Assembly (NCBI GenBank): GCA_050116355.1
Contig: JASFOV010000012.1
Location: 1 to 20,664, forward strand
From: Anaerolineae bacterium
GTDB lineage: Bacteria > Chloroflexota > Anaerolineae > JAAYZQ01
Direction: 5' to 3'
DNA: 20,664 nt
The notes beneath the pieces were generated by a model that had not been told where the DNA came from, searched no databases, and saw only the letters and a list, made by a program, of their open reading frames with translations. This document shows positions 4,059-14,026 of this stretch, piece after piece. Each line of letters begins with the position of its first letter. Within the stretch, counting starts at the first letter, position 1. The position numbers and the translations under genes were made by a program.

Positions 4059-4321
4059 TACAAACACCGGCCATCTTTCTCTCCCTCATCCTGGCTTCTG
4101 TCTATGCCGTCGTGTTCCACCTGCTCAAGGGGCGTACCCTTCGCGATCTGCTGTTTCTGTGGCTAGCAGCCGTGATCGGATTTGCCGCAGGCCAGGTAGC
4201 GGGTCAGATGCTGAACTTCATCCCGTGGACCATCGGTGAGGTTCGGGTCGTAGAGGGCACACTCATATCGGTGCTGTTTCTGATCGTGGCCCGCTGGCTG
4301 ATGCAGGACAAGACGAAATGA
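4055..4321 (+). CDS. Small integral membrane protein, 88 aa with about 3 TM helices. Unknown function.
   Basis: MIQTPAIFLSLILASVYAVVFHLL..., three hydrophobic segments. ATGA overlap with the mnmA stop at the start, and ATGA overlap with the next gene at the stop. This implies translational coupling. Confidence 0.6.
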   Translation: MIQTPAIFLSLILASVYAVVFHLLKGRTLRDLLFLWLAAVIGFAAGQVAGQMLNFIPWTIGEVRVVEGTLISVLFLIVARWLMQDKTK

Positions 4322-6087
4322 CAGAGCAAGTGACGAAAAGCACACCCAATGCAATCACTCAGAAGTCAGGAGTGAAAGGCAGGGAGCTATCTCCTATTCA
4401 CGAGGCTGAACCACGCGACACCGCGCAGGTATGGCTGGCAGATGGCCGGGTATTTGAAGGACCGGTAGGTACGCCCCTGGAGGAGTTCCTCCAAATCGCC
4501 GAGCCCGATGCCCAAGTGCCAACTGTTGCGGCATTGGTCAACGGTGAACTACGGGAACTGACGTACCGGGTGGAAGCCGACATCGAAGTGACACCTATCA
4601 CTATGGCGCACAGCGACGGCTTCCGGATCTATCGCCGCTCGCTGGCCTTTCTGCTGGTGACCGCCGTCCATGAGCTATTCCCCGACGCCACAGTATACGT
4701 CGACCACTCGCTCACATTCGGCGGCTACTTCTGCCAGATCCAAGGCCGGGAAGCCTTTTCAGAGGAGGAACTGCGCCAGGTCGAAGCCCGAATGTGGGAA
4801 ATCGTCGCGGACGATGAACCCATCCTCAAGGCCCGGGTCCCCTTGAATGATGCGATTGCCCTGTTCAAAGCCCGGGGCGACGACGACAAGGTGCGGCTTC
4901 TCTCTCGCAGGAGCAAGGGCTACCTGACGCTGTACCAACTGCGTGGCTTTCGCGACTATTTTCACGGCTACATGGTCCCCTCCACCCAGTATCTGCAGGT
5001 ATTTGACTTGCGGAACTACCCGATGGGGTTCATCCTTCGATTTCCCCGCAGCCAGCCGCCGATGCAGTTGCAGCCGGTCCTCGATTACCCCAAGCTCTTG
5101 AGTGTCTTCCGTGAGTATGGCCATTGGATGGAGCTGATGGGCATACGCGACGTCGGCTGTCTCAATGATGCCATTGCCGGAGAACAGGTACGCGAGATCA
5201 TCCTCGTGGCCGAGGCGCTGCACGAACAAAGAGTCGCCCGCATAGCGCAAGAGATCGCCTCCCGCCAGGGAGAATGCCGCTTGGTGCTGATCGCGGGTCC
5301 GTCGTGTTCGGGCAAGACCACATTCTCCAAACGACTGAGCATCCAGCTGTTGGCCAATGGACTGCGGCCTTTTGCCCTGGAACTGGACAACTACTTTTTG
5401 GAACGGCAGAAGACACCCCGGGACGCGAACGGAAATTACGATTTCGAATCCCTTGATGCAGTCGACGTCCAGTTGTTCAACGAGCACCTGCTACAGTTGC
5501 TGGATGGCATGGAAGTCACTTTGCCGCGCTACAACTTTCGGACTGGCCTGCGGGAGGTGGGCCAGTCCGTTCGCCTGAGACCCGACCACATCGTCATCGT
5601 TGAAGGCATCCACGGGATGAATCCCAAACTAGTACCGGACATACCACCTGGCGTAACCTACCGGGTCTACACCTCAGCCCTGACCCAGCTCAACATAGAT
5701 AAGCACAACCGTGTCCCGACGACTGACACCCGCCTGCTCCGCCGGATCTTACGGGATGCCGCCTATCGAGGATACACGGCTCAACAAACGATCGATCGTT
5801 GGGAGAGCGTGCGCCGCGGCGAAAAGCGATGGATCTTTCCCTTTCAAGAACATGCCGATGTTATGTTCAACTCAGCGCTTGTCTATGAGCTTGCCGTGCT
5901 GAAACCGTTGGCAAAGCCCCTGCTGCTTCAGGTCAAGCCCTTTACCCGGACCCACGTGGAAGCGAAACGACTCATGGCCTTTCTCGAATGGTTTGAACCG
6001 TTGGCGCCTACCCTGGTGCCGGACAACTCGATCTTGCGCGAGTTTGTAGGGGGCTCAATCCTCAGAGACTTTCACGTGTCCGTGTAG
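4318..6087 (+). CDS. Fusion protein: ThrRS-like TGS N-terminal domain plus a PRK-family nucleoside (uridine/cytidine-type) kinase C-terminal domain.
   Basis: N-terminus VWLADGRVFEGPVGTPLEEFLQIA is TGS-like. Kinase P-loop LIAGPSCSGKTTFSKRLSIQL and LELDNYF are typical of the uridine kinase/phosphoribulokinase family. 589 aa. Confidence 0.75.
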   Translation: MTEQVTKSTPNAITQKSGVKGRELSPIHEAEPRDTAQVWLADGRVFEGPVGTPLEEFLQIAEPDAQVPTVAALVNGELRELTYRVEADIEVTPITMAHSDGFRIYRRSLAFLLVTAVHELFPDATVYVDHSLTFGGYFCQIQGREAFSEEELRQVEARMWEIVADDEPILKARVPLNDAIALFKARGDDDKVRLLSRRSKGYLTLYQLRGFRDYFHGYMVPSTQYLQVFDLRNYPMGFILRFPRSQPPMQLQPVLDYPKLLSVFREYGHWMELMGIRDVGCLNDAIAGEQVREIILVAEALHEQRVARIAQEIASRQGECRLVLIAGPSCSGKTTFSKRLSIQLLANGLRPFALELDNYFLERQKTPRDANGNYDFESLDAVDVQLFNEHLLQLLDGMEVTLPRYNFRTGLREVGQSVRLRPDHIVIVEGIHGMNPKLVPDIPPGVTYRVYTSALTQLNIDKHNRVPTTDTRLLRRILRDAAYRGYTAQQTIDRWESVRRGEKRWIFPFQEHADVMFNSALVYELAVLKPLAKPLLLQVKPFTRTHVEAKRLMAFLEWFEPLAPTLVPDNSILREFVGGSILRDFHVSV

Positions 6088-6363: not shown

Positions 6364-6786
6364 TCAGAATCTGATCGGCTCCTTTGAATCGTCTGCCAAG
6401 GTCCAGAAGTGTGCTTCGCCCGTGAATATGCGGCAAGGTCGAACAATCGGTCTTACCGAAAACCCTACGAGAGCGTCAAGCCAGGATCTATTCTGATAGG
6501 CTTTGTCCAGATTCTCTTCGTCCTCCAGAAACTCGATCTCGCCTGTTACTCTCATATGTTTCCAATCCTCCGGGCCTGCCCCATTGTTGAAGAAGCACAC
6601 CTCAACCTTGGGATTCTCCTGCAATTGCCTGGTAACCTCCTTTTCAGCCAGCGGTACAAAGTAGAATCCGCTTTCGTCAGCGTACCACAGATAGAAAGTT
6701 CTCACCCGCGGTTGATCACCGTCTGTCGTGGCCAGATAGCAGACAGGGTTCTCAGTCGCGAACTCGATACACTCATTGATGTCCAT
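6364..6786 (-). CDS. Pyridoxamine 5'-phosphate oxidase-like FMN-binding split-barrel protein (general-stress-protein-26-like).
   Basis: 140 aa, MDINECIEFATENPVCYLATTDGDQPRVRTFYLWY.... Strong Shine-Dalgarno site AAAGGAG 7 nt before the ATG on the minus strand. Lower G+C than the flanks. Confidence 0.75.
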   Translation of the reverse strand: MDINECIEFATENPVCYLATTDGDQPRVRTFYLWYADESGFYFVPLAEKEVTRQLQENPKVEVCFFNNGAGPEDWKHMRVTGEIEFLEDEENLDKAYQNRSWLDALVGFSVRPIVRPCRIFTGEAHFWTLADDSKEPIRF

Positions 6787-6939: not shown

Positions 6940-7281
6940 CTATTTGCCCACCGAAACGTAGTCGGTATAGATACTATCCATGGGAGTCGCGAGAGTTGCC
7001 CACTTTTCCATGGCTGCTGCCCAGGGCTCAAAGACCTGTTGAGCTTCCTTTGACATCTCACCTGGAGAGGGAAAAAATCGGTCGCGAGCTTCGACGCTCT
7101 CAAACTCGTACATCACCAGATACTTACCTTCTCTATCACCCCGGTCACCCCTTAGGAGATAGCTTTCCGAACCTTCAGGTGAGGGGAGTGGATACACCTC
7201 TTCTGTCACAAACCTCTCGAAATCCTCAGCTTTCACTCCTGGCTTGAGCGCGATCATGTGCATACCGAAGACTTTCGACAT
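6940..7281 (-). CDS. Small cytoplasmic protein of 113 aa with a predicted ferredoxin-like beta-alpha-beta-beta-alpha-beta (Dabb-type) fold.
   Basis: MSKVFGMHMIALKPG...KYLVMYEFESVEARD...SIYTDYVSVGK. I prefer the ATG at 7279-7281 (complement) because AAGGAGG sits 8 nt upstream. The track's start at 7299 is a GTG inside that Shine-Dalgarno site. Confidence 0.6.
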   Translation of the reverse strand: MSKVFGMHMIALKPGVKAEDFERFVTEEVYPLPSPEGSESYLLRGDRGDREGKYLVMYEFESVEARDRFFPSPGEMSKEAQQVFEPWAAAMEKWATLATPMDSIYTDYVSVGK

Positions 7282-7770
7282 GACTGGATCCTCCTTCACT
7301 CCAAGGTACAGCTTCCAATAGCCGCATGCCCCACCGGTGACATGCAGCTACACCTCTTGTCAGTTGAGCACACGAACTTTCACTCACCTAATGACAAGAT
7401 CTGATACGTTTGCCATTCAGCAACAAACCGGATTGAACCGTGAACCATAGGTCCGACAAAGCCCGCGTTGACATTCGCAATCCCACGCTATGACTGCATT
7501 TCAATCTGCTTGACCAACTGATTTCGTGTCGGAACATGATGGGTGGCTGCGGTGCAAGGGGCACAATGGCAATGCCGTGAAGAAGCTGCCCCCTGCCGCC
7601 GAAAACATGGATTCCAGTGAGGTTACTGTGTTCTGCGAGGGTACTGTACGCTGCGCTGTCTGTGCTGCTGCTACAACTCCATTATACCTCACGGAAGCAC
7701 GGATGTCAATAGCCCGAATCAAGTCATTCAGAATGTTGCTTCTTGTTCATTTTGCCCTCTCCTCACTTCC

Positions 7771-7951: not shown

Positions 7952-9775
7952 ATGCAAGCGTCCAACAGCAATGACCGAATTCAGATACCAACGTGGGCCA
8001 AGATCCTCTATCTACTCTTTGTTGCCCTGGTCGCCCTCATTGCCTACCGGGTCGGGTCGATCTGGTTCGGTCACATTGTTGTCATCCTTTTCCTTCTGCC
8101 GTTGACTTGGACGTTTGCGCCCCGAAGCCGCCGGTTGGTTCGTTTCCTTTTCGTATACATAGTCCTCACCACCCTATTGGCAACAGCATTTTTCCTCTTC
8201 TTGAACGATCCGTATCGCAGTGCAGCCATTGAAGATGCAGGTCTGCTCAACTTTCTGATTGGCGGGCAGGCGGCTCGCGTCATTGTGTCGATCGTGACCG
8301 CTGTCTTGCTCAGCGCCCTTGTGCTGCTCGGTCCCATTCTCTTGCTGGCATGGGTGAGCAGCGAGTGGATCCTGCAGATGCCGGACGTGTACGACATCAG
8401 CCGCTGGCAGGCGATGCGAATGCTGGCTGGCACCATGCTCAATACCACCGCTGCCTACTTTGTGGTCGATGAGGGTGAGATAAAGCAGTCAAAACCCAGT
8501 GGGCTGCTGCCCCGGTTAGGTGGGCCAGGTATGGCCGTGATCAAACCTTACAATGCAGTGGTATTTGAGCGCGGCGGTGAGATCACGCGCATCGAAGGCC
8601 CAGGCGCATACCGGACCGAACGCTTCGAAATGGTCAAGGGCATTGTCGATCTGCGGAAGCAATGGCTCAACTTCACGGCTGAAAACGTCCTAACCAAAGA
8701 CAATGTGCCGCTCACTTTCCACTGTGGCGTCGGCTTCCAAATCGAGCCACAATGGGAGACTGCGCGGCGAGTAGAGGCACCTGGTGAGAGCCGCGAAGGC
8801 CGGAAATTCACCGGGATCATCGACGGCGACTATGCGGTTTATCGGCGCACCATCTACCGGGCGGTTTACAATACGACGGCCGGTGGTTGGAGACTGTCCA
8901 GCCAAGGGGCAACCGAGACCCAACTACGAAAGATCATGCGCCAGTACCGCCTCGAGGATCTGTACCGCTTAGAGGATGACCAACTCAAGCAAGATGCCCC
9001 GGTCATCAACACCATCGAAGAACAGGTGCGGGACAACACAGGCACCATCCTTCACACATGGGGTGCAACGCTATCCACATTTTCGATCAAGAGCTTTGAG
9101 GCCCCAGAAGATGTCAAGGACAGGCTGCTCGAAATGTGGGCGGCGCGCTACGCAAGCCGGAGGCAAATCATTGACGCCGAAGGCAGCCGGGATGCGGATC
9201 TCACCAGGTGGCAAGCACAGGAAGAGATTACCATCCGAGAAGCCAGGGCAGATGGGCAAGCCGAACTCACGCGGTTGATGGCCGAGACGGAGAAGCATAT
9301 CCAATTGGCCAACGCCGAGCGATTGGCCCTTGAGTCCAAAGCGGCTGGGGAGAGCCAGGCCATCCGGGAAAAACGCCGAGCGGAGAGTGAAGTTGAGGCA
9401 GAACGGATCCAGGCCGAGGCTGAAGCCAGACGAAGGGCAGCCGAATTGCGATTGGATAGCGCCCGAGCGGAGGCACAGGTCAAGGCATGGGCCCGCCGGC
9501 TGGAGGGAGACGCCGAAGCACAAGCCCGAGCCGAAATGTTCCGGCAGATCTTAAACGTCCTCTATAGCCGCGACGAGCACCCCGAGATTGACGAGCGCAC
9601 AATCTCTCAGATCGCCGAGAACCTGGCGACAAGAGTCGGGCTGGAGGAAGCAATGCGGTACCTGGCCGCGGTATCTGGGCGACGAGACAAGGGCCTGCTT
9701 TCAGCCGGCAGCGACAAATCATCAGAGGACGCATCCGACGACAACCCCGGCGAACAGGCCGGCCCACGGAGCTAG
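7952..9775 (+). CDS. SPFH/Band-7 (flotillin/stomatin-like) membrane protein with about 4 N-terminal TM helices and a long Ala/Glu/Arg-rich coiled-coil C-terminus.
   Basis: TM helices lie within residues ~20-140. The SPFH-like core is GPGMAVIKPYNAVVFERGGEITRIEGPGAYR...TKDNVPLTFHCGVGFQI. The coiled coil is EAERIQAEAEARRRAAELRLDSARAEAQVKAW.... The ATG at 7952 is in frame with the track ORF 7940..9775, whose first codon is TTG. Confidence 0.75.
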   Translation: MQASNSNDRIQIPTWAKILYLLFVALVALIAYRVGSIWFGHIVVILFLLPLTWTFAPRSRRLVRFLFVYIVLTTLLATAFFLFLNDPYRSAAIEDAGLLNFLIGGQAARVIVSIVTAVLLSALVLLGPILLLAWVSSEWILQMPDVYDISRWQAMRMLAGTMLNTTAAYFVVDEGEIKQSKPSGLLPRLGGPGMAVIKPYNAVVFERGGEITRIEGPGAYRTERFEMVKGIVDLRKQWLNFTAENVLTKDNVPLTFHCGVGFQIEPQWETARRVEAPGESREGRKFTGIIDGDYAVYRRTIYRAVYNTTAGGWRLSSQGATETQLRKIMRQYRLEDLYRLEDDQLKQDAPVINTIEEQVRDNTGTILHTWGATLSTFSIKSFEAPEDVKDRLLEMWAARYASRRQIIDAEGSRDADLTRWQAQEEITIREARADGQAELTRLMAETEKHIQLANAERLALESKAAGESQAIREKRRAESEVEAERIQAEAEARRRAAELRLDSARAEAQVKAWARRLEGDAEAQARAEMFRQILNVLYSRDEHPEIDERTISQIAENLATRVGLEEAMRYLAAVSGRRDKGLLSAGSDKSSEDASDDNPGEQAGPRS

Positions 9776-10025
9776 ACAGATTGCCCTCGTTTACCGCTTC
9801 TGTGTTCGGACTGCAATTCGTGTCAAGATGCACCACAGTTTTTTTGGGCTACTCCTTTGCAGAGCGCTCGAACATCGGCATTCGCAGGTGGCTCATAGAA
9901 GGATTTCTGAGGACGGGATTGGAGATGCAAGGATCTGGTGCCGGAGCGCTCCCGGCATACCAGTCTAGGAAGAAGGTGGATCCGGCATCTGTCCAGAGCC
10001 GCCCCGATGCCAAAGGCGGGTAGAG

Positions 10026-11480
10026 ATGGAATGCGTTTCGTGCAAACAACCGATCCCGCTGGACACCCAGTATTGTCCACGGTGTGGGGCAGACAACACG
10101 GAGTGGCAGCGGCTACAGCAGCGGTCTGGACTGGGACAATGGCTTGACTTTTTCGACAGCACAGTCTGGGCCCATATCTTCTGGATTGTGGTGCTGGGAG
10201 CCGCGTTGCTCATGCTGACCGCGGCCTTCTTTGCAGTGCAAAGCGGTCTCTTCTGGTTCTTGGGAGCTCTGCTGGCTGTGAGTCTATGCACCGCCTTCTA
10301 CTTGCTCGCTTTCGGCTGGCGTTGGAGCATCCGCGAGTACGAGTGGCTCCGGAAGCAGATGGCTCGTTGGAGGCCCCCAGTGCGAAGCTTGGTCGTCGTG
10401 AGCTTCCTTTTGGGTACTCTCTTGCTGCCAGTAGCTGCCTTGCTGCCTGGCCCCGTATCCGCTACGCCCGCAGCCGCCGCCTCAGACCTGCCACCCGTGC
10501 CGGAAGGTCAAAACGGTCCTACGGCAACCTTCACACCACGTCCCACTTCCACCTTCACGCCAGCTCCCATCCGTCAAAGAGAACCAGAACCTGATCCGCC
10601 CATCACTGCCACCCCACCGCCAGATGGAAAGGGCGCGCTTCCGTCAAGCATGACGGAGCCTTGGCTTCTATCAGCGGCTTCGGCTGCGGTGTGGCCGGTC
10701 TCGGCGCTGCTGGCGCCGAGCCAAAACCAGGAGATGGCGGTGCAGCCCCAGGGCACGGCCTTAGACCTGGGAAACCGGCTGGCTCCAGTACTGCTGGGGA
10801 TTGCACTGGGTCTCTACGGCCTGGGATTCGGCTTGGCAGCCGACTTGAGCTTTGCGAGCTGGTTGAATCGGCGGCTACCCCGTCCGATCTTTGCCGATCG
10901 CAGCCGGCTGGCCCGAGTCCTCCGTCGCGAGGCGGAATTCCTGCTGCGTTCGGGGCAAAAGGAGCGGAATTGGGGGACCCAACGCCGCTACGAGCGCTTT
11001 GAGCATGATCAGGACCAATTCGAAATCACTCAGGAGCAGATCCGGGAGTTCTACCGGTCTATGCCACCTGAAGACTTGTCCTCGGCAAGCTGGCTATTGC
11101 CAGAGGGTCAGGAAAACGTCCACGTCAAGTTCACAAACCAGGCACCAGGCGAAGCCAGGGATTCATGGGAGATTTGGGAGAACCGGCCCGCCATGGAGGT
11201 TCAGATCGAGGCGATGGAGCGCACCGACGATGGTGGAATGCGCATCCAGATCGCTGTCTTGGCCGACGACGTGGAGAAGGCAATGCGCCAGGACGGGGAT
11301 ACGGTTCACCTGCGGCTCCGGGGACTGAGCCACTACGAACTAACAGCAGACCTCTGGGGCTGGCCCACGGAACTGAGCGAAACCGATGACTACCGGCTCG
11401 TACAAGTCGTCAGACGGGACGTATCGGTCATTGATCCGCCGGAAGCGATCCCCCTGCCCAAGCTGGAGGAAGCCGAGTGA
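10026..11480 (+). CDS. Zinc-ribbon (CxxC-x10-CxxC) membrane protein with about 5 TM helices, a Pro/Thr-rich linker and a C-terminal soluble domain of about 200 aa with no family I can name.
   Basis: N-terminus MECVSCKQPIPLDTQYCPRCG. Hydrophobic helices follow. Linker TFTPRPTSTFTPAPI...PPITATPPPDG. 484 aa. The stop is 4 nt before the psuK ATG. Confidence 0.65.
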   Translation: MECVSCKQPIPLDTQYCPRCGADNTEWQRLQQRSGLGQWLDFFDSTVWAHIFWIVVLGAALLMLTAAFFAVQSGLFWFLGALLAVSLCTAFYLLAFGWRWSIREYEWLRKQMARWRPPVRSLVVVSFLLGTLLLPVAALLPGPVSATPAAAASDLPPVPEGQNGPTATFTPRPTSTFTPAPIRQREPEPDPPITATPPPDGKGALPSSMTEPWLLSAASAAVWPVSALLAPSQNQEMAVQPQGTALDLGNRLAPVLLGIALGLYGLGFGLAADLSFASWLNRRLPRPIFADRSRLARVLRREAEFLLRSGQKERNWGTQRRYERFEHDQDQFEITQEQIREFYRSMPPEDLSSASWLLPEGQENVHVKFTNQAPGEARDSWEIWENRPAMEVQIEAMERTDDGGMRIQIAVLADDVEKAMRQDGDTVHLRLRGLSHYELTADLWGWPTELSETDDYRLVQVVRRDVSVIDPPEAIPLPKLEEAE

Positions 11481-11484
11481 GACC

Positions 11485-12408
11485 ATGAGCCATATACTTG
11501 TCATCGGCGCGGCGAGCATCGACACGAAGGGTCGCGCTGACCAGCCATTCCAACGCGGTACTTCGACTCCGGGCGCTATCCGTGTCAGCGTTGGTGGAGT
11601 CGGTCGCAATGTCGCCGAGAACCTGGTACGGTTGGGAGAGACCGTGGTTCTGGTGTCAGCCGTAGGTGACGACGGATCCGGACGCCGTATTCTCAACCAG
11701 GCGGACGAGTGCGGGATCGACATGAGCCACGTCATCGTGGCTCATGAGCACCGCACGGCCGCCTATCTCGCCGTTCTGGACGAGACGGGCAATACGGTCA
11801 TGTCGGTCGACGATATGTCCATCAACCGCGAAGTGATTACGCCGGTGTACATCTACCATCGTCGTGCTCTCTTTCGTGACGCCCAGATGGTAGTCGTCGA
11901 CGCCAATCTGTCACCTTCCACGCTGCGCACCATCTTTGCCCAAGCCGAAAAATACGACGTGCCGATCTGCGCCGATCCAACGACAGCAACACTAGCGCCA
12001 CGCCTCAAGCCCTACCTCTGCCAGCTGGCACTAGTCGCGCCCAACGCCGCTGAGGCCGAAGCCCTATGCGGGGTGCAGGTCACCGACCGGGAGAGCGCGT
12101 TGGACGCAGCCCAGAGATTGGCTGGTTTGGGCGCCCGCCTGGCCATCGTCACCTTGGGTGCCACAGGGCTCGTCTATGCCACCTCGCACGAAAGCGGACA
12201 CGTACCAGCCATTGAGGTCGAGGTCGTAGATCTCACAGGCGCCGGGGACGCCTTGACAGCCGGCGTGGTGTTCGGCTTGCTGAACGAGTTCCCCACTGAC
12301 GAGGCTGTCCGGCTGGGAGCATCGGCAGCCGCACTCACACTGCATAGTCGCGAGACGGTTTGCCCAACCTTGAGCCTTGAGCGCCTATACGATCAACTGA
12401 GGTTCTGA
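11485..12408 (+). CDS. psuK: Pseudouridine kinase (PfkB family).
   Basis: PfkB signature VDLTGAGDALTAGVVFGL. About 307 aa. Sits immediately upstream of psuG. The ATG at 11485 is in frame with track ORF 11386..12408. Confidence 0.75.
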   Translation: MSHILVIGAASIDTKGRADQPFQRGTSTPGAIRVSVGGVGRNVAENLVRLGETVVLVSAVGDDGSGRRILNQADECGIDMSHVIVAHEHRTAAYLAVLDETGNTVMSVDDMSINREVITPVYIYHRRALFRDAQMVVVDANLSPSTLRTIFAQAEKYDVPICADPTTATLAPRLKPYLCQLALVAPNAAEAEALCGVQVTDRESALDAAQRLAGLGARLAIVTLGATGLVYATSHESGHVPAIEVEVVDLTGAGDALTAGVVFGLLNEFPTDEAVRLGASAAALTLHSRETVCPTLSLERLYDQLRF

Positions 12409-12418
12409 CCGAGAGCAT

Positions 12419-13339
12419 ATGACACGACCCATGCACCTGAGCAGCGAGATCCAAGCTGCCCAGGACAGTAACCTACCCATCGTCGCCCTGGAATCGACTG
12501 TCATTGCCCATGGCTTGCCCTACCCCACCAACCTGGACACAGCACGCCGGATGGAAGCCATCGTGCGGGAGAATCAAGCCGTGCCGGCCACGATTGCAGT
12601 GCTACAAGGACAGCTGCGAGTTGGCCTTTCCGCGGATGAACTGGAACATCTGGCCCGAGACTCCAACATCCGGAAAGCCAGCCGGCGGGATCTACCCATT
12701 TTGGTCGCCGAGAAAGGGGATGGGGCAACAACTGTTGCCGCCACAGCGACCATTGCCGCCTGGGCAGGGATCGAGGTCTTTGCCACTGGTGGCATCGGTG
12801 GCGTACACCGGGATCCCCCCTTTGACATCTCCAATGACCTGCCGACTTTGGCTCAGGTGCCAGTCACGGTTGTATGTTCTGGCGCCAAGTCTATCCTGAA
12901 CCTGCGAGCAACTCTGGAGTGGCTGGAGACAGCCGGCGTCCCCATTGTTGGCTTTGGTACAGACGAGTTTCCAGCCTTCTACTCCCGAAGCAGCGGTCAC
13001 AAGGTTGACGTCCGGGCGGACACCCCAGACCAGGTGGCGAACCTGGTGCACAGCCAGCGCCAGCTGGGCTTGGGCGGTGGTCTACTCGTGACTGTGCCTG
13101 TCCCAGCATCAGCCGCCCTGTCCAATGAGTACCTGGAAGCGAGCATCACGGCAGCACTGCAGATGGCACAGAAGGAAGGCATAACCGGCAGCGCCACCAC
13201 ACCATTCTTGCTGGATTGGATCGTGGATCAGACCCAGGGCGCAAGCTTGAAGGCCAATGTGGCCTTGCTGGAAAACAACGCCAAGGTTGGCGCACAGGTC
13301 GCCATGGCGGTACAGCAACTCAAAACACAAGGAACCTAG
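12419..13339 (+). CDS. psuG: Pseudouridine-5'-phosphate glycosidase (YeiN/IndA-like).
   Basis: N-terminal LESTVIAHGLPYP. TGGIGGVHRD. 306 aa. Confidence 0.85.
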   Translation: MTRPMHLSSEIQAAQDSNLPIVALESTVIAHGLPYPTNLDTARRMEAIVRENQAVPATIAVLQGQLRVGLSADELEHLARDSNIRKASRRDLPILVAEKGDGATTVAATATIAAWAGIEVFATGGIGGVHRDPPFDISNDLPTLAQVPVTVVCSGAKSILNLRATLEWLETAGVPIVGFGTDEFPAFYSRSSGHKVDVRADTPDQVANLVHSQRQLGLGGGLLVTVPVPASAALSNEYLEASITAALQMAQKEGITGSATTPFLLDWIVDQTQGASLKANVALLENNAKVGAQVAMAVQQLKTQGT

Positions 13340-13342
13340 TTC

Positions 13343-14026
13343 ATGACCTGGAAGCCAGACTATACAGCGCTCATCGTGTCGTACGCTTATGTTTTCTCGG
13401 TTATCGGTGTAGCCGAACTATTGCGGCGGCTGGGCAAGCGTCCCCAGGAATTCACGCGCAAGTTCATCCATATTGGCGTGGGCATGTGGGTCGTGGGCAC
13501 AGTGTTCCTGTTCGAGACTTGGTACCTGGCCCTCATCCCGCCGATCTCCTTCATCGTCATCAATGCACTTTCCTATTGGCGCGGCACCTTCCAGGCAATG
13601 GAAGGCGGCGACAGAGGCAATCTGGGTACCGTCTACTTCCCTCTATCGTTTGCAGTGCTCATCTATTGCTTCTGGAGCCAGCCAGTCCTCATGGTGGCCA
13701 GTCTGATGCCCCTAACCTGGGGGGATGCTATGGCAGGTCTGGTAGGAAAGCGGTACGGCCACTACCGCTATACCATCGCCGGGCGATCCCGCTCCGTGGA
13801 AGGATCGGTCGCCATGCTGTTTTGGAGCTGGATCACGACCTCCCTGGCGCTATTCATCATGCCATACCTGCTGGGCAAGCCACTCATAAACTGGCTGCTA
13901 GCCCTGATCTATGGTGGGGCCATCGCAGTGGTCTGCACGCTGGTCGAGGCCCTCACGCCCTGGGGGCTGGACAACTTGACCATCCCGGCTGCCACCTGGT
14001 TGCTCCTGGACTTGCTGCGGAATTGA
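13343..14026 (+). CDS. CTP-dependent polyprenol/diacylglycerol kinase-like integral membrane protein (CdsA / dolichol kinase / phytol kinase superfamily).
   Basis: 6-7 TM helices. C-terminal motif WGDAMAGLVGKRYGHYRYTIAGRSRSVEGSVAMLF (GD..A..G...G.....KS.EGS pattern). Starts 3 nt after the psuG stop. Confidence 0.65.
   Translation: MTWKPDYTALIVSYAYVFSVIGVAELLRRLGKRPQEFTRKFIHIGVGMWVVGTVFLFETWYLALIPPISFIVINALSYWRGTFQAMEGGDRGNLGTVYFPLSFAVLIYCFWSQPVLMVASLMPLTWGDAMAGLVGKRYGHYRYTIAGRSRSVEGSVAMLFWSWITTSLALFIMPYLLGKPLINWLLALIYGGAIAVVCTLVEALTPWGLDNLTIPAATWLLLDLLRN

Follow-up and report, generated by a model that had tools for sequence, protein, structure and literature searches.

Which protein serves as the partner of an SPFH scaffold when no NfeD protein is encoded beside it is the question raised by a locus on contig JASFOV010000012.1 of an Anaerolineae bacterium (assembly GCA_050116355.1), of which positions 1 to 20,664 were analyzed (referred to as the window). 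At this locus, a gene for a stomatin-like SPFH protein with several transmembrane (TM) segments (7952 to 9775, plus strand; 607 amino acids, aa) precedes a co-directional gene for a 484-aa protein with a zinc ribbon and four TM segments (10026 to 11480), which belongs to an unnamed Chloroflexota family and is designated ZnR here. For both open reading frames (ORFs), the nearest database copies carry the label of Anaerolineae bacterium proteins from metagenome-assembled genomes. A first-pass annotation made from the sequence alone had noted that no NfeD-like partner is present, and indeed a domain search detected NfeD neither among the substantial ORFs of the window nor in contig L001, which is syntenic with it. 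Based on the genomic linkage described below, ZnR probably is the partner of the SPFH scaffold and replaces the usual NfeD protein.

To define the family to which ZnR belongs, a word-indexed protein search was conducted, which retrieved three close relatives, and a rerun with a 10-sequence alignment gave the same three. When 1.84 billion cluster representatives were searched exhaustively with a profile, 106 matches at E ≤ 1e-3 were obtained, and at least 67 of them have the full architecture, consisting of zinc ribbons, TM1 to TM3 with a REYEWLR motif, a loop, TM4 with an LPxPIF motif, an insert and a C-terminal core. A Pfam scan of 66 members revealed no family common to all, and NCBIfam and PDB sequence searches with ZnR gave nothing besides a zinc-ribbon match; when the ZnR profile was compared with PDB sequences, the only match was the zinc ribbon of 1qyp, an RNA polymerase II subunit (E 0.013). 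The source annotation of the ZnR proteins reads "hypothetical protein [Chloroflexota bacterium]". Thus, as judged from these searches, ZnR is an undescribed Chloroflexota family without a Pfam model.

We then examined the linkage of the two families from both sides. On the SPFH side, a scan with one genome per GTDB species identified 17 loci in Anaerolineae or other Chloroflexota; this required an alignment as the query, since a scan with the single SPFH protein returned no loci. The ORFs of these 17 loci were scanned with hidden Markov models for ZnR, which was found near SPFH in 9 of them, directly downstream in seven (L012, L013, L014, L018, L021, L022 and L025) and at a distance of up to 10 kb in two (L020 and L023). 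Among the loci lacking ZnR, two were on short contigs (L011 and L016), and in three the contig ended just past a TPR/S24-like gene that elsewhere separates SPFH and ZnR (L010, L015 and L017). On the ZnR side, ten distant members sharing ca. 20% identity with the window protein were looked up, two of which lay on contigs too short to be informative. SPFH was adjacent to ZnR or one to two genes away from it in six of the eight informative cases, with the gene orders ZnR-SPFH-SPFH-TPR (P0084/L026), SPFH-TPR/S24-[IS630]-ZnR (P0065/L030), SPFH-SPFH-TPR-ZnR (P0057/L032), SPFH-ZnR-PfkB (P0071/L035) and SPFH-S24-ZnR (P0166/L040), and with a cut-off SPFH gene, represented by its C terminus, directly upstream of ZnR in P0058/L027. 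Co-occurrence across genomes, the check that the first-pass annotation had called for, was therefore seen from either gene, and it reaches down to ca. 20% identity for ZnR and 26 to 35% for SPFH, with either gene first and with differing flanks. Since gene order, SPFH copy number, intervening genes (none, TPR/S24 or IS630) and flanking genes all vary, the linkage appears to be maintained rather than a frozen synteny.

The TPR gene with an S24-peptidase-like C terminus recurs beside SPFH in L026 (9930 to 10928), L032 (3104 to 4249), L030 (3779 to 4804) and L040 (6947 to 7948), and also in L010, L015, L017 and L023, and the window has none. The S24-like domain carries the motif GDSM in L030 and GHSM in L040, and it is apparently degenerate in L026 and L032. 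In addition, one Anaerolineae contig (L011, 790 to 5546) encodes, in tandem, three paralogues of the SPFH protein with several TM segments.

The SPFH ORF could start at TTG 7940 or ATG 7952, and the latter was favored because the N termini of homologues read MQAS, MQAP or MPAS. Forty-four homologues of 450 to 790 aa with similar N termini were collected, all but one of which match Band_7 (PF01145). In the window protein, Band_7 was the sole Pfam match (34.6 bits versus a cutoff of 23.6) and was confined to aa 196 to 264, covering only profile positions 2 to 70 because the SPFH domain contains an internal insertion. When a family profile built from 31 homologues was compared with the PDB, it matched PH stomatin (7e-12), QmcA (8.5e-10) and human stomatin (ca. 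3e-6), and these matches extended over the remainder of the SPFH domain and the helices after it, with profile positions 354 to 502 aligned to QmcA residues 132 to 283. Since stomatin and QmcA are matched well beyond the Pfam segment, the product of the window gene is a stomatin-like SPFH protein that is complete but interrupted by an insertion, and its SPFH domain occupies about aa 190 to 400 (8519 to 9151) according to Pfam, the alignment and the PDB profile matches.

The domain is preceded by an N-terminal membrane region (aa 12 to 138; 7985 to 8365), delineated by hydropathy and by conservation in 31 members, and followed by a helical region rich in Ala, Glu and Arg (about aa 400 to 530; 9152 to 9541), which has the character of a coiled coil and gave a weak TolA-like match at aa 403 to 528. 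Hydropathy analysis placed hydrophobic blocks at about aa 12 to 33, 34 to 52, 61 to 86 and 101 to 141, and all four, as well as an SSEWIL motif and a loop rich in Arg, are retained in each of the 31 homologues aligned. About four N-terminal TM segments plus a coiled coil, as initially described for this protein, are thus borne out. The last block, 32 aa in length with a conserved Gly-Pro and followed by SSEWIL, might cross the membrane as one TM helix or form a hairpin of the stomatin type. The early comparison with YqiK/FloA flotillins needs correction, since the profile matches place the protein, at the sequence level, closer to stomatin and QmcA. A flotillin identity of the FloA, FloT or YqiK type was rejected on the same grounds: Band_7 is the only Pfam match, and the PDB matches are to stomatin and QmcA, not to flotillin. 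Comparison of the SPFH family with Bacillus subtilis YdjI by hhalign aligned only 26 columns at 5% probability.

The layout of ZnR was deduced from an AlphaFold2 model computed with the 66-sequence alignment, from hydropathy and from conservation in the family. The model has a mean predicted local distance difference test (pLDDT) score of 76 and scores above 90 for the zinc ribbon, TM1 to TM3, TM4 and the C-terminal core. At the N terminus lies a zinc ribbon of the form C3-x2-C6-x10-C17-x2-C20 (10032 to 10085), predicted to be cytoplasmic; its four Cys residues are at least 90% conserved over the 66 members, and it gave a weak Pfam DZR match (17.7 bits). This is the CxxC-x10-CxxC motif that had been recognized at first reading. 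It is followed at 10164 to 10442 by TM1 (aa 47 to 69), TM2 (aa 74 to 97), the conserved and positively charged segment IREYEWLRK..WRP (aa 99 to 117), predicted to lie on the cytoplasmic side, and TM3 (aa 119 to 139), with pLDDT values of 84 to 97 for the three helices. TM4 (aa 244 to 277) and the juxtamembrane motif LPRPIF (aa 284 to 289) occupy 10755 to 10892 (pLDDT 93 to 97), and P285 and P287 of this LPxPIF motif are at least 90% conserved. Model and family alignment therefore support four TM helices instead of the roughly five first proposed: a fifth hydrophobic stretch at aa 212 to 232 is weak, of low confidence and missing from the relative P0003.

Between TM3 and TM4 lies a Pro/Thr-rich loop (aa 140 to 243; 10443 to 10754; pLDDT 45 to 53), which is probably extracytoplasmic. 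The Pro/Thr linker mentioned in the first-pass annotation corresponds to about aa 145 to 245, modeled as disordered. This loop is hypervariable in the family, containing a Big_7 Ig-like domain in P0057, PD40-like repeats in P0086 and a coiled coil in P0051, and is almost absent from members of 265 to 290 aa. The distribution of Lys and Arg fits a topology with both termini inside; by the positive-inside rule, the N terminus, the TM2-TM3 loop and the C-terminal domain would be cytoplasmic and the variable loop outside. The zinc ribbon is present in 0 to ca. 6 copies per protein and appears therefore to be a variable-copy or dispensable module. Two members carry about six repeats ahead of the TM region (L014, 2055 to 3254; L021, 11560 to 12759), and those of L018 and L022 have no zinc ribbon. 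Furthermore, there is a subfamily of proteins of 470 to 650 aa with a long N terminus (zinc ribbon at about aa 100) in L034 (499 to 4547) and L038 (3194 to 6939), and these two loci share a divergently transcribed gene for a protein of 577 to 621 aa (no Pfam match, 52% identical) and a BFN_dom gene.

The C-terminal domain of ZnR (10893 to 11390), predicted to be cytoplasmic, comprises a helix (aa 292 to 310), an insert (aa 311 to 389) of variable length in the family and low model confidence, and a beta core (aa 390 to 455). In this core of about 65 aa (RTxxGG...ADxWG), R399, G403, G404, D442 and W444 are near-invariant. No Pfam, NCBIfam or PDB sequence match was found for the domain, in agreement with the early statement that it could be placed in no family. 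The full-length model gave no useful result in fold searches, and a separate model of aa 283 to 484 consisted of one helix followed by an antiparallel sheet, whose fold matches were of the cystatin/NTF2-like kind and included latexin, NTF2-like proteins, VirB8, IcmL, DotI and the C-terminal domain of Tim44. The modeled domain thus appears to be of the cystatin/NTF2-like fold class, to which YdjG of B. subtilis has been assigned (PMC11237479). Two other assignments were considered and dismissed: an NfeD-like OB fold was ruled out by the fold comparison (helix plus antiparallel sheet), and a PepSY-like domain, suspected from a D.WG.I pattern in the terminal hairpin, remained a fold-class impression only, with no Pfam PepSY match in the 66 members.

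To place the pair among known systems, we compared it with SPFH proteins whose partners have been described. The closest case is that of B. subtilis YdjG/SamG and YdjH/SamH, the membrane anchors of the SPFH protein YdjI/SamI, which the pspA-ydjGHI operon encodes. YdjG combines two zinc ribbons with an NTF2-like domain and one TM segment (PMC11237479), and YdjG and YdjH are both needed to bring the soluble YdjI to the membrane (PMC8581546); YdjI for its part restrains YdjG/YdjH (bioRxiv 10.64898/2026.02.06.704340). For the comparison, the B. subtilis pspA-ydjGHI sequence was taken from a metagenome contig (L036), where it was located via a published primer sequence. Like ZnR, YdjG has an N-terminal zinc ribbon (its start reads MIISYKCPNCGSD in L036), and the two proteins also share a membrane anchor and gene linkage to an SPFH gene. 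However, the order of domains differs, being zinc ribbon-zinc ribbon-NTF2-like-one TM in YdjG versus zinc ribbon-three TM-loop-TM-alpha/beta domain in the window protein, and YdjI is a soluble protein carrying a zinc finger at its C terminus, in contrast to the window SPFH protein, which has four membrane segments of its own. In an hhalign comparison with the ZnR profile, YdjG aligned only at the zinc knuckle (12 columns, 20% probability), a result whose sensitivity is limited by the single-sequence template. Neither PspA nor a homologue of the TPM-domain protein YdjH was found in the window or the syntenic contigs. On sequence evidence, then, the relation between ZnR and YdjG is architectural, with what appear to be the same three kinds of part in another order and no demonstrable homology. 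The initial proposal of a novel SPFH partner is thereby upheld in part: the family is undescribed and co-conserved with SPFH, and its C-terminal domain matches no well-known family, but a partner with zinc ribbons has a precedent in YdjG/SamG (PMC11237479, PMC8581546).

NfeD-type partners (E. coli YbbJ with QmcA, P. horikoshii PH1510/PH1511, and YuaF/YqiJ) resemble ZnR as small proteins with several TM segments and a soluble C-terminal domain that are encoded beside a stomatin-like SPFH gene, and the best solved relatives of the window SPFH family, PH stomatin and QmcA, are of the types that pair with NfeD. No NfeD Pfam match was detected in the window ZnR or in the 66 family members, and the C-terminal parts differ in fold: that of NfeD is a five-stranded OB barrel (PMC4208085), and that of ZnR is a helix plus antiparallel sheet with cystatin/NTF2-like matches. 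Two further parts set ZnR apart from NfeD, namely the zinc ribbon at its N terminus and the long, variable loop on the outside. A third likeness is to HflK/HflC-FtsH and other pairs of an SPFH cage and its client, with which the locus shares the idea of an SPFH ring corralling a membrane client; the tandem SPFH paralogues by ZnR in L026 and L032 resemble the hetero-oligomeric HflK/HflC pair. Unlike a client of the FtsH type, ZnR has no protease or ATPase domain, and only one SPFH gene is present in the window.

Assembly into rings or domes is general among SPFH proteins, QmcA being a 26-mer (PMC12624060), and by analogy the window SPFH protein probably assembles into a large membrane ring or dome. 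ZnR would take the role that NfeD has for stomatin and QmcA, or that the B. subtilis proteins YdjG and YdjH have for YdjI. Four parts of ZnR that by the positive-inside rule face the cytoplasm (zinc ribbon, REYEWLR loop, LPxPIF motif and C-terminal domain) could dock onto the SPFH domain or the coiled coil, and the hypervariable TM3-TM4 loop, directed outward, would be a candidate site of lineage-specific envelope contacts or sensing. We therefore favor, as the reading that is more likely correct than not, that ZnR is a dedicated partner or client of the SPFH ring, which it contacts via the cytoplasmic zinc ribbon, the juxtamembrane motifs and the C-terminal domain, and that the outside loop provides the lineage-specific contacts.

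Several points weigh against this reading. Its support consists of genomic context and models, and all loci come from one phylum, so that shared ancestry inflates the counts. Three loci lack ZnR although their flanks are long (L009, L019 and L024), and the ZnR subfamily with the long N terminus (P0068/L034 and P0088/L038) has no SPFH neighbor. In the window itself, the 250-nucleotide (nt) spacer between SPFH and ZnR is not conserved in relatives, and ZnR is coupled more tightly to the downstream gene psuK (4 nt) than to SPFH. Moreover, since the last hydrophobic block may be a hairpin, the SPFH domain might face one side of the membrane and the soluble domains of its partner the other.

The tight coupling to psuK invites the alternative that ZnR works with the pseudouridine catabolism encoded downstream, for example in uptake, anchoring or regulation of PsuK and PsuG, its adjacency to SPFH being incidental. 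ZnR is followed on the plus strand by genes for a psuK-like PfkB kinase (11485 to 12408), psuG (Indigoidine_A; 12419 to 13339) and a membrane protein of 227 aa that matched no family (13343 to 14026). As noted at first reading, the ZnR gene ends 4 nt before psuK (last nucleotide of the stop codon at 11480, ATG at 11485); the distance is also 4 nt in L001, and the two genes overlap by 4 nt in L003. Next after ZnR, on the same strand and with short gaps, come psuK and/or psuG in L012, L014, L018, L021, L022, L025 and L035; the ZnR-psu adjacency was found in at least eight further loci, and the block of psuK, psuG and the 227-aa gene is syntenic with the SPFH-ZnR pair, same strand and short gaps included, in many Anaerolineae. 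A uridine-kinase-like gene upstream of the pair would also suit such a role. However, ZnR stands beside SPFH in six loci without psu genes (L013, L023, L026, L030, L032 and L040), and in L009 SPFH abuts psuK with no ZnR between them. These loci indicate that the general association is that of SPFH with ZnR, and that the psu linkage is lineage-specific, belonging to the whole block in one lineage and not to ZnR specifically. Nor did a family scan of ZnR, with its four TM segments and zinc ribbon, yield any transporter family match. We consider a role tied to pseudouridine catabolism improbable. Even less credit is due to the view that SPFH and ZnR are functionally independent and adjacent merely by inherited Anaerolineae synteny. 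All examples are from Chloroflexota, the closest relatives share the whole block PRK-SPFH-ZnR-psuK-psuG-m227 in synteny and the SPFH-ZnR spacer is variable and not conserved, as this view would have it, but the linkage holds at ca. 20% ZnR identity and survives rearrangement, being seen with ZnR before or after SPFH, with SPFH in single or double copy, with TPR/S24 or IS630 in between and with wholly different flanks.

Another set of neighbors suggests that the pair might be the membrane-sensing part of a conflict, defense or programmed-cell-death system, of which the window would hold a stripped-down copy. In L040 (1 to 16873)/L041, SPFH-S24-ZnR lies among genes for SIR2_2, two STAND (NACHT/AAA_16-TPR) NTPases, a radical-SAM/SPASM protein and a CHAT protease; AAA_16/TPR and radical-SAM/SPASM genes adjoin SPFH-TPR/S24-ZnR in L030 (1 to 6798), and two SPFH members are fused, P0027 to SIR2_2 and P0045 to a STAND ATPase. 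Yet PADLOC gave no match for the SPFH, ZnR and TPR proteins except a weak generic TPR match, the pair is not flanked by any mobile-element signature, and the window and its psu-linked (type-A) relatives carry no S24, STAND, SIR2_2, radical-SAM/SPASM or CHAT genes and have housekeeping neighbors in conserved synteny, so that we regard this explanation as distinctly unlikely. In a broader proposal, which is speculative and in our estimate still on the unlikely side, SPFH and ZnR, often joined by the TPR/S24 protein, may form an undescribed, Chloroflexota-specific membrane-surveillance module, in which the ring would hold ZnR and the hypervariable outside loop of ZnR would monitor the condition of the envelope. 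Part of the lineages would use it to feed S24 autoproteolysis or STAND, SIR2 or CHAT effectors in the conflict or cell death of filamentous bacteria, and in the lineage of the window it would be wired into a pseudouridine-catabolism operon.

If ZnR is indeed a dedicated SPFH partner, the family of about 100 sequence clusters would add another to the few known in bacteria, namely NfeD, FtsH and YdjG/H, for scaffolds that every domain of life possesses. In Anaerolineae, the family seems to take the place of NfeD and to repeat the domain combination of YdjG (zinc ribbon, membrane anchor and NTF2-like domain) without detectable sequence homology, and the pair would be a concrete case for how SPFH rings recognize clients. 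The S24, STAND, SIR2 and CHAT neighbors at some loci hint at an undescribed signaling use of SPFH scaffolds.

Regarding the remaining features of the window, the SPFH-ZnR spacer (9776 to 10025) is 250 nt long, compared with 62 nt in L001 and 716 nt in L003. An RNA element or attenuator was sought in the 250-nt spacer, and there was no Rfam match, no conservation and no convincing terminator. In L003 (6119 to 6833), and likewise in L004 to L007, a frame in the 716-nt spacer weakly resembles the C terminus of the SPFH family (E 3e-4); the L003 frame may be the remnant of a frameshift or rearrangement, as far as the sequence indicates.

Upstream of SPFH, positions 4318 to 6087 of the window encode a 589-aa protein with a uridine-kinase/PRK domain at aa 319 to 521 and a weak likeness to the N terminus of threonyl-tRNA synthetase at aa 107 to 233, which is found upstream of SPFH in close relatives too. 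Two minus-strand genes lie between it and SPFH, one for a PNPOx-like protein (6364 to 6786) and one of 119 aa that matched no family (6940 to 7299); neither is at that position in L001 or L003, and the GC content falls there to ca. 0.52. Finally, a perfect 12/12 match to a sigma-70-like promoter is located on the minus strand at 7709 to 7681.

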